DNA of 64,000 bases from Escherichia coli (GCF_036507355.1 NZ_AP027877.1), one strand, 5' to 3'; positions 42,394 to 43,272 are shown, counted from the stretch's first letter. Numbers and translations: made by a program. Notes: generated by a model from the letters alone, not told the origin.

Positions 42394-43272
42394 TTACTGA
42401 CTCGCCGCAGCCAACTCTTCTTCTGACAGCCCGGTAAAGCGCATGATGTCTGCAAGAGGGACTCCGGATTCAAGCATTATTTTGGCTATATGCAGGGCTT
42501 TGGATTGTTCCCCCTCCTGCCGCAATCTTTCCGCAATAGTCATTAAACTCTCCTTGTGTTTCGGTGAACGTTCGGCAACGCCGTCGATAAAATCGTTAAA
42601 ACGTACCGCATCGCCGGTTTGCAAGATGTAATTAAACAGCCCTTTGATTTGTCTGTCATTAGCGTATCCACTACTTAATAAGCAGGCCATTTGCTCTACC
42701 AGCCCCATCAGGTCGCGTTGACGAATATGTTTTTGAATTAACTCCAGCAGCGCTATGCGTCGGTGCTGCATGATTTCATCATCAGGCATGACGGTGACAT
42801 CAATCAGCGGAAATGCGGAGGCATAAAGCTGCCTTGCCAGTTTGGGATCGGCGAAACAATCCAGCCAACACAGCGAATAGGGATAGGGGCTTTCAATACC
42901 GTGGTAAAACAACAATGGCACCACCATCGGCAACGTTTTGTATCCGGCATCAAGGTGATTTTGCATTGCGGCAATAGCGTAACGCATCATGCGAAATGCG
43001 ATCAGTTTGTTTGAGGTGCTTTGATGTTCAATCAGACAATAGATGTATCCTGGTCCTTGTTCTGTTTTCACCGACCACAGCACATCGGAATAGCTTTCAC
43101 GCAGATCGTCATCAATAAAGCTGCTCGACTCCAGCTTGAGGGTTTTCATATCACAGAGCGCGTGAATGGGTGCCGGTAAATGAAACGCAAGAAAATCGCG
43201 TGCCGTCTCCGGTTGGCGTAAAAATAGTTTGAACAGCGCATCGTGTGGGGTGGAACTCTGCTTTTTGCTCAT
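42394..43272 (-). CDS. rpnA: Rpn-family recombination-promoting nuclease (transposase_31 / PD-(D/E)XK-like)
   Basis: 292-aa [20 protein letters not shown]...; known in K-12 as yhgA. Confidence 0.85.

Follow-up and report, generated by a model that had tools for sequence, protein, structure and literature searches.

The locus at positions 42394 to 43272 of the DNA analysed here, a 64,000-nucleotide stretch of an Escherichia coli genome (GCF_036507355.1, NZ_AP027877.1) that we refer to as the window, is confirmed as an intact, ordinary E. coli rpnA gene, with an identity far beyond chance. We hypothesize, with a probability of roughly 0.85, that its one frame specifies a nuclease toxin, RpnA_L, and an intragenic antitoxin, RpnA_S, and that this includes an antiphage role. 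The open reading frame, its domain, the catalytic residues, the internal ribosome-binding site (RBS) and start, the identity with the crystallised RpnA_S, the synteny and the purifying selection are all observed in the window itself. We stress that the copy departs in nothing from published knowledge and that what it encodes is already known. A preliminary description of this DNA, whose interpretation is partly supported by our analysis, overlooked both the internal start of RpnA_S and the current model of the gene as a toxin-antitoxin (TA) pair and candidate antiphage nuclease.

That description named the gene rpnA (yhgA), and the assignment holds. An open reading frame occupies exactly 42394..43272 on the minus strand, encodes the full-length nuclease (toxin) of 292 amino acids plus a stop, and begins with ATG, 6 nt upstream of which stands AAGGA. 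Its product matches the NCBIfam equivalog NF007361, 'recombination-promoting nuclease RpnA', at 692.3 bits against a curated cut-off of 583 bits, residues 1-292 lying on profile positions 1-292, and it differs from the K-12 protein at two amino acids. A Pfam scan finds the Transposase_31 domain (PF04754, 'putative transposase, YhgA-like') at residues 8-209 (42646..43251, minus strand; E = 1.8e-91; 305.7 bits against a gathering cut-off of 21; profile positions 1-202 of 203), which spans the PD-(D/E)XK core and a conserved second segment. Lack of a Transposase_31/Rpn match would have refuted the preliminary description; both kinds of match were obtained. By megablast, sequence annotated as rpnA is present in 5424 of 5426 complete E. 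coli genomes, at a median of one place per genome, with 5427 of the 5428 places chromosomal; neither a second copy nor another Rpn paralogue was found elsewhere in the window.

The claimed synteny with K-12 was also borne out, the gene lying between feoC and bioH. The window order gntX-bioH-rpnA-feoC-feoB is that of K-12 MG1655 and of strain PapM-32-1 (ompR/envZ, greB, yhgF, feoA, feoB, feoC, rpnA, bioH, gntX, nfuA, gntT, malQ, malP); the window is inverted with respect to K-12, the region around rpnA is collinear with it, and the neighbours feoABC, bioH, gntX and nfuA are housekeeping genes. rpnA and bioH are convergent, and the 26 bp (42368-42393) that separate their stop codons contain no terminator. 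The ExcludonFinder paper (PMC12288877) lists rpnA-bioH among the gene pairs of its section on RNA-seq-based excludon identification.

RpnA of K-12 MG1655 (YhgA, b3411) has the same locus and the same length as the window protein, with 98.3% nucleotide identity between the genes and 290 of 292 residues identical. The 15 nucleotide differences in 879 comprise 13 synonymous and two non-synonymous changes, the latter giving D22E and M173I, both conservative, and because pN/pS relative to K-12 is 0.043 we conclude that this copy is under purifying selection. Five of the synonymous differences cluster ahead of the internal ATG, at a distance of 64-82 nt. Outside the gene, ten differences fall in the 208-nt upstream intergenic region, and the window spacer between rpnA and bioH is one base shorter.

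The protein had been described as a PD-(D/E)XK-type nuclease, and the catalytic residues of such an enzyme are present. Read from the sequence, the core motif D63 ... E82-H83-Q84 lies at 43021..43086 on the minus strand (D63, 43084-43086; E82, 43027-43029; Q84, 43021-23), with Q replacing the canonical K, as it does in K-12, and a PDDEI motif (residues 163-167; 42772..42786, minus strand) lies in the non-core part of the domain. D11, D63, E82, Q84, R94 and D165 (the last in PDDEI) are all present in the window RpnA. In the K-12 protein, D63A, E82A and Q84K abolish all phenotypes (Kingston et al. 2017, PMC5350276), D11 and R94 also matter, their mutants being inactive, and D165A is hyperactive (PMC5350276). 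An alignment of the window protein with K-12 RpnA and its paralogues RpnB, RpnC and RpnE, a check proposed in the preliminary description, shows these functional residues to be invariant, namely D11, D63, E82-H83-Q84, R94 and PDDEIMQH, together with the internal M244. An AlphaFold2 model of RpnA, built from an alignment of only five sequences, is of low confidence (mean pLDDT 54.5); its elements follow the order of an alpha-beta-beta-beta-alpha-beta core (E40-47, E61-70, E73-82, H91-108, E116-122).

The nested in-frame gene rpnA_S (42394..42543, minus strand) runs from an internal ATG (M244; 42541-42543) over 49 codons to the shared stop and encodes the 49-aa antitoxin, RpnA residues 244-292. 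The ATG stands 6 nt after an internal Shine-Dalgarno sequence, AAGGAG (42550..42555, minus strand; CACAAGGAGAGTTTAATG), which falls within codons K240-E241. The internal RBS, the ATG and the RpnA_S frame are identical to those of K-12, where the site has been verified by mutation: K240R+E241D+M244L abolishes RpnA_S (PMC10400941). A PDB sequence search with RpnA returns a single match, 7TH0 ('RpnA-S'), whose 49-residue chain is 100% identical to the window product (49 of 49 residues), and Foldseek likewise gives 7TH0, at the C-terminus, as its sole PDB match. For the N-terminal part, neither Foldseek nor the PDB sequence search found a structure. By its identity with 7TH0, the small product has the fold of the RpnS three-helix dimerisation domain. 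Run alone against Pfam and NCBIfam, RpnA_S matches no dedicated small-protein model above cut-off.

All five K-12 rpn genes have an internal translation start (Zhong et al. 2023, PNAS; PMC10400941), and the small C-terminal proteins (RpnS) arise as products of their own, often outnumbering the full-length forms; RpnA_L itself was undetected in K-12 under standard laboratory growth (PMC10400941). RpnA_S and RpnA_L form a 2:2 complex, which blocks cleavage of double- and single-stranded DNA, toxicity and SOS induction, and the evidence for an internal promoter with a short RpnS transcript is published dRNA-seq of K-12 only (PMC10400941). Strict and relaxed scans of the window copy gave no sigma-70 consensus match inside the gene for such a promoter. 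The paralogue alignment places the site of the variable four-aa repeats of other Rpn proteins in helix 1 of RpnA_S (E253-H261; 42490..42516, minus strand), with the indel block beginning right after RQE253; the H261 site is in the same helix (PMC10400941). The search for tandem repeats in the rpnA_S region found none, and the window allele has no four-aa repeats.

Upstream of the gene, a relaxed scan (score 8 of 12) predicts a weak, sigma-70-like candidate for the rpnA_L promoter, TGCACA-16 nt-TAGAGT (43305..43332, minus strand); a stricter sigma-70 scan returned nothing. A GCGCGTAG(A/T)GT stretch at the candidate can be aligned by eye with the Salmonella locus. Further upstream, inspection of the sequence shows a hairpin followed by a T-run after feoC (AAAGCCCGG...CCGGGCTTTTTT; 43410..43460, minus strand), probably the feoABC terminator, and therefore rpnA is probably a separate transcription unit. 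The terminator scan did not call this hairpin, probably owing to its long loop, and an Rfam search over 42000-44000 gave one sub-threshold chance match over it (23.8 bits against a gathering score of 70).

The mechanism that we favour draws its nuclease activity, toxicity, neutralisation and stoichiometry from the literature on a protein with two amino acid differences, and would run as follows. The single frame would be translated into two proteins, RpnA_L (292 aa) and RpnA_S (49 aa). RpnA_L would act as a Mg2+-dependent, sequence-nonspecific PD-(D/E)XK DNA endonuclease with D63, E82 and Q84 as its catalytic residues and, if unchecked, would be toxic and induce the SOS response. Initiation at the internal AAGGAG and ATG would supply RpnA_S, a three-helix bundle that would dimerise and bind the identical C-terminal domain of RpnA_L with 2:2 stoichiometry, blocking DNA cleavage. 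Because one set of codons serves both toxin and antitoxin, the surfaces through which they interact must co-vary. Once released, by alkaline pH in vitro and presumably by a phage-dependent trigger in vivo, the nuclease would cut DNA. The cell would thereby mount an abortive or defensive response; RecA-independent recombination would be a by-product of over-production.

We consider antiphage defence the most likely role of the chromosomal RpnA; antiphage activity has been demonstrated for the plasmid homologue RpnP2 only (PMC10400941). Against a defence role stands the position of rpnA among housekeeping genes, outside any defence island, and PADLOC v2.0.0 has no model that matches the locus. 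The failure to detect RpnA_L in K-12 under standard growth, the lack of an internal promoter in the consensus scans and the cluster of five synonymous differences ahead of the internal ATG also weigh against our reading. The function is dispensable, since the nuclease core is absent from 14% of E. coli genomes, which also counts against the TA and defence reading. In the literature on Rpn after 2023 we found nothing that alters the picture.

An alternative that we regard as improbable is that, as was first proposed, the primary physiological role of RpnA is RecA-independent (illegitimate) recombination and gene acquisition in horizontal transfer, with the TA behaviour as a side effect. Over-expressed RpnA does raise RecA-independent recombination in conjugal crosses, and its cleavage leaves 3'-OH ends that polymerases can use (PMC5350276). 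A housekeeping role is conceded as possible for some Rpn proteins by Zhong et al., as is the idea that these proteins may even expand the repeats in their own genes (PMC10400941), and the C-terminal swaps and deletions at the rpnA locus described below are consistent with local illegitimate recombination. However, the recombination phenotype requires over-production, the earlier RpnA constructs unknowingly co-expressed RpnA_S (PMC10400941), and multiple rpn deletion is reported not to lower basal RecA-independent recombination. The promotion of RecA-independent recombination put forward in the preliminary description has thus been reported for RpnA (PMC5350276), but as an over-expression phenotype; it is the activity from which the family takes its name.

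The preliminary description also called the gene core, which is correct for its position and for the 3' antitoxin segment but not for the catalytic core. We probed 5426 complete E. coli genomes with a catalytic-core segment (gene nt 100-280) and with an antitoxin segment (the internal RBS and rpnA_S). The antitoxin probe matches 5424 of the genomes, the catalytic-core probe 4663, leaving 763 without the core. The core-less genomes carry two types of internal deletion, with locus spans of 625 and 442 bp (examples NZ_CP069639.1 and NZ_CP097367.1). The commoner 442-bp-span allele retains an intact AAGGAG, the ATG and a 49-aa RpnA_S with one substitution; in the 625-bp-span allele the RBS codons carry E241V. 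An even sample of 60 rows contained about 10 with a 1085-bp form with a divergent, swapped C-terminal domain and a K-12-type remnant. One such gene, in PCN033 (L003, NZ_CP006632.1, 601-1685), specifies a 297-aa protein whose C-terminal domain is divergent (...QEGFQKGIRTNALNIAKTMLDAGVSLEDVLRFTSLTVEDLAEINHQ) and is followed downstream by a stop-interrupted remnant of the K-12-type RpnA_S end, which suggests a swap of the C-terminal (antitoxin) domain. Swapping of the C-terminus, variation of the four-aa repeats and repeated loss of the core with retention of the small frame are typical of Rpn loci.

It is conceivable, if rather unlikely, that the conserved unit of the locus is the nested antitoxin gene rather than the nuclease, and that, if the retention is selected, an orphan RpnA_S has a function of its own. 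Were this so, orphan RpnA_S might provide, for example, anti-addiction immunity against incoming rpnA alleles or serve as a regulatory helix-turn-helix protein, and the armed state of the intact window copy would be the ancestral one, from which the locus has been disarmed repeatedly. Far less credible is the proposal that rpnA in the source genome is a dispensable, decaying relic with no current function. The deletion of the core in 763 of 5426 complete E. coli genomes, the degradation, disruption or deletion of the gene in other Escherichia and the absence of detectable RpnA_L from laboratory-grown K-12 (PMC10400941) would fit such a relic, but the window copy has its full length and keeps all functional residues, and only two of the 15 nucleotides at which it differs from K-12 change an amino acid (pN/pS 0.043). 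The comparison shows that a gene that looks core by synteny can be a fast-evolving, often disarmed module of the TA or defence type, which mostly restates Zhong et al. 2023.

Beyond E. coli, where the label of core fails for other Escherichia as well (gene deleted, degraded or disrupted by insertion), we examined the feoC-bioH junction in a BioH-anchored scan that took one genome per species and covered 62 loci. Escherichia sp. MOD1-EC7003 (L010 4740-4780) has a clean 1111-bp deletion corresponding to window positions 42362-43472, with rpnA and both intergenic regions gone; its bioH is two codons shorter, and the TAA of bioH overlaps the feoC stop on the opposite strand. E. albertii retains only fragments of rpnA. 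In E. whittamii (L023 948-2249) an insertion of ~1.3 kb splits rpnA at a point corresponding to about window 42624-42627 and encodes a 376-aa protein of the TnpB / IS605 OrfB type (Pfam OrfB_IS605, Cas12f1-like_TNB).

Salmonella enterica and some Citrobacter (L012-L014, L022, L024; including subsp. diarizonae and arizonae) carry an rpn gene at the same junction in the same orientation as rpnA. These loci have the same internal start motif as RpnA and an upstream leader that can be aligned by eye. Their Rpn proteins share 60-62% amino acid identity with RpnA and are as close or closer to RpnB (62-67%), whereas the flanking FeoB and BioH of the same loci are 92-94% and 80-89% identical; and they carry about 2-7 GLQE-type four-aa repeats (counted by eye) after the internal Met, of which RpnA has none. 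Several lack the N-terminal nuclease part: S. enterica subsp. arizonae has only a 61-aa RpnS frame, and in C. youngae and C. amalonaticus the N-terminus is gone. In Leclercia, Enterobacter sp. MAG, Kluyvera and Klebsiella (L016, L021, L028, L030; about 4769-5260) a gene for a YdgH/BhsA-like secreted protein of ~89 aa replaces rpn, and in two Citrobacter (L015, L017) the junction holds only a 58-bp GC-rich hairpin. The occupants thus differ across the Enterobacteriaceae, and therefore the feoC-bioH junction is a variable spot whose occupant is fast-evolving, as is typical of the Rpn family as already described.

A 15-nt imperfect direct repeat brackets rpnA. Its downstream copy lies at 42373..42387 and its upstream copy at 43292..43306, 20 nt before the rpnA ATG; on the plus strand they read TTTGAATGGCGAGAC and TTTGAATGCCGCGAC and are identical at 13 of 15 positions, a level reached by 0/5000 and 1/2000 shuffles of the flanks. 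K-12, PapM-32-1, PCN033 and E. whittamii have an extra base (T) in the downstream copy. We considered the repeat as an insertion scar and rejected this, on the grounds of the indel in K-12 and most E. coli, the absence of the repeat from Salmonella and Citrobacter, and deletion boundaries that lie elsewhere. The repeat is probably due to chance, though it is statistically unusual in the window.

The repeat, together with the Pfam name Transposase_31, a below-cut-off NCBIfam match labelled 'ISNCY family transposase' and the patchy presence of rpn at the feoC-bioH junction across genera, could be taken to mean that rpnA encodes the transposase of an IS-like element, whether domesticated or still active. 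We found no terminal inverted repeats flanking rpnA, the sole inverted pair (42501/42850, 14 nt) being internal; 5424 genomes carry the gene at a fixed site, with a median copy number of one, and the window holds no second copy; K-12 and most E. coli have the indel that weakens the direct repeat, and Salmonella and Citrobacter lack the repeat; and the clean loss of rpnA in MOD1-EC7003 has boundaries other than the repeat. The ends of Rpn loci vary and show no target-site duplications, no autonomous transposase with the PD-(D/E)XK fold is known, and Zhong et al. 2023 consider it very unlikely that the Rpn family consists of transposases (PMC10400941). A transposase, domesticated or active, is accordingly the least probable of the readings that we weighed and is largely refuted. 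The 'domesticated transposase' of the preliminary description goes back to the Pfam name alone and fails on these points, and the label is evidence neither of mobility nor of a link to the IS and Hcp genes of the window.

Those genes lie well apart from rpnA: the IS is ~20 kb and the Hcp gene ~42 kb away. The former is an IS3-family element (21443-22599) with a 100-aa frame (21443-21745), which we read as its orfA, and an orfB (21781-22599) with rve domains and an NCBIfam transpos_IS3 match of 335 bits. The block of extra frames around it includes two PBP_like_2 (PstS-like) genes and a 158-aa hydrophobic frame with no family match, and from its position against K-12 we take it to lie between glgP and glpD. 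The Hcp-family gene (1-524, minus strand; Pfam T6SS_HCP, E = 1.3e-12) contributes its N-terminal 174 aa and runs off the start of the window; we presume from the K-12 map that it is YhhZ-like.

Among known systems, TnsA of Tn7 needs the DDE transposase TnsB as its partner and belongs to a defined element that has ends, whereas rpnA has no partner genes and no ends and sits at a single fixed locus. TnsA, a subunit of a heteromeric transposase, has PD-(D/E)XK catalytic chemistry like that of RpnA, linked to DNA mobility (PMC10400941). The K-12 paralogues RpnB, RpnC and RpnE have the same domain order as the window protein but are located elsewhere on the chromosome, are 66%, 49% and 60% identical to it, respectively, and have 2-8 extra residues at the repeat site of their C-terminal domains; a further K-12 paralogue, rpnD, is a pseudogene. 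Rpn antitoxins are paralogue-specific (PMC10400941). RpnP2, from a plasmid of ECOR13, shares with RpnA its family and the L/S gene-within-gene logic, a likeness stated at the level of family and organisation. Deprived of its S form, RpnP2 is strongly toxic, and the plasmid system confers protection from T-even phages.

We suggest that the annotation of the locus be corrected to show both of its products, the nuclease toxin and the 49-aa antitoxin nested within it. In the K-12 RefSeq record NC_000913.3 (L002 18168-19046) rpnA alone is annotated, with no CDS of its own for rpnA_S; mcrB-S is annotated in that record. McrB of E. coli K-12 belongs to an unrelated family, as the GTPase subunit of a restriction enzyme, but here too a shorter in-frame product with an internal start, McrB-S, modulates the full-length protein.
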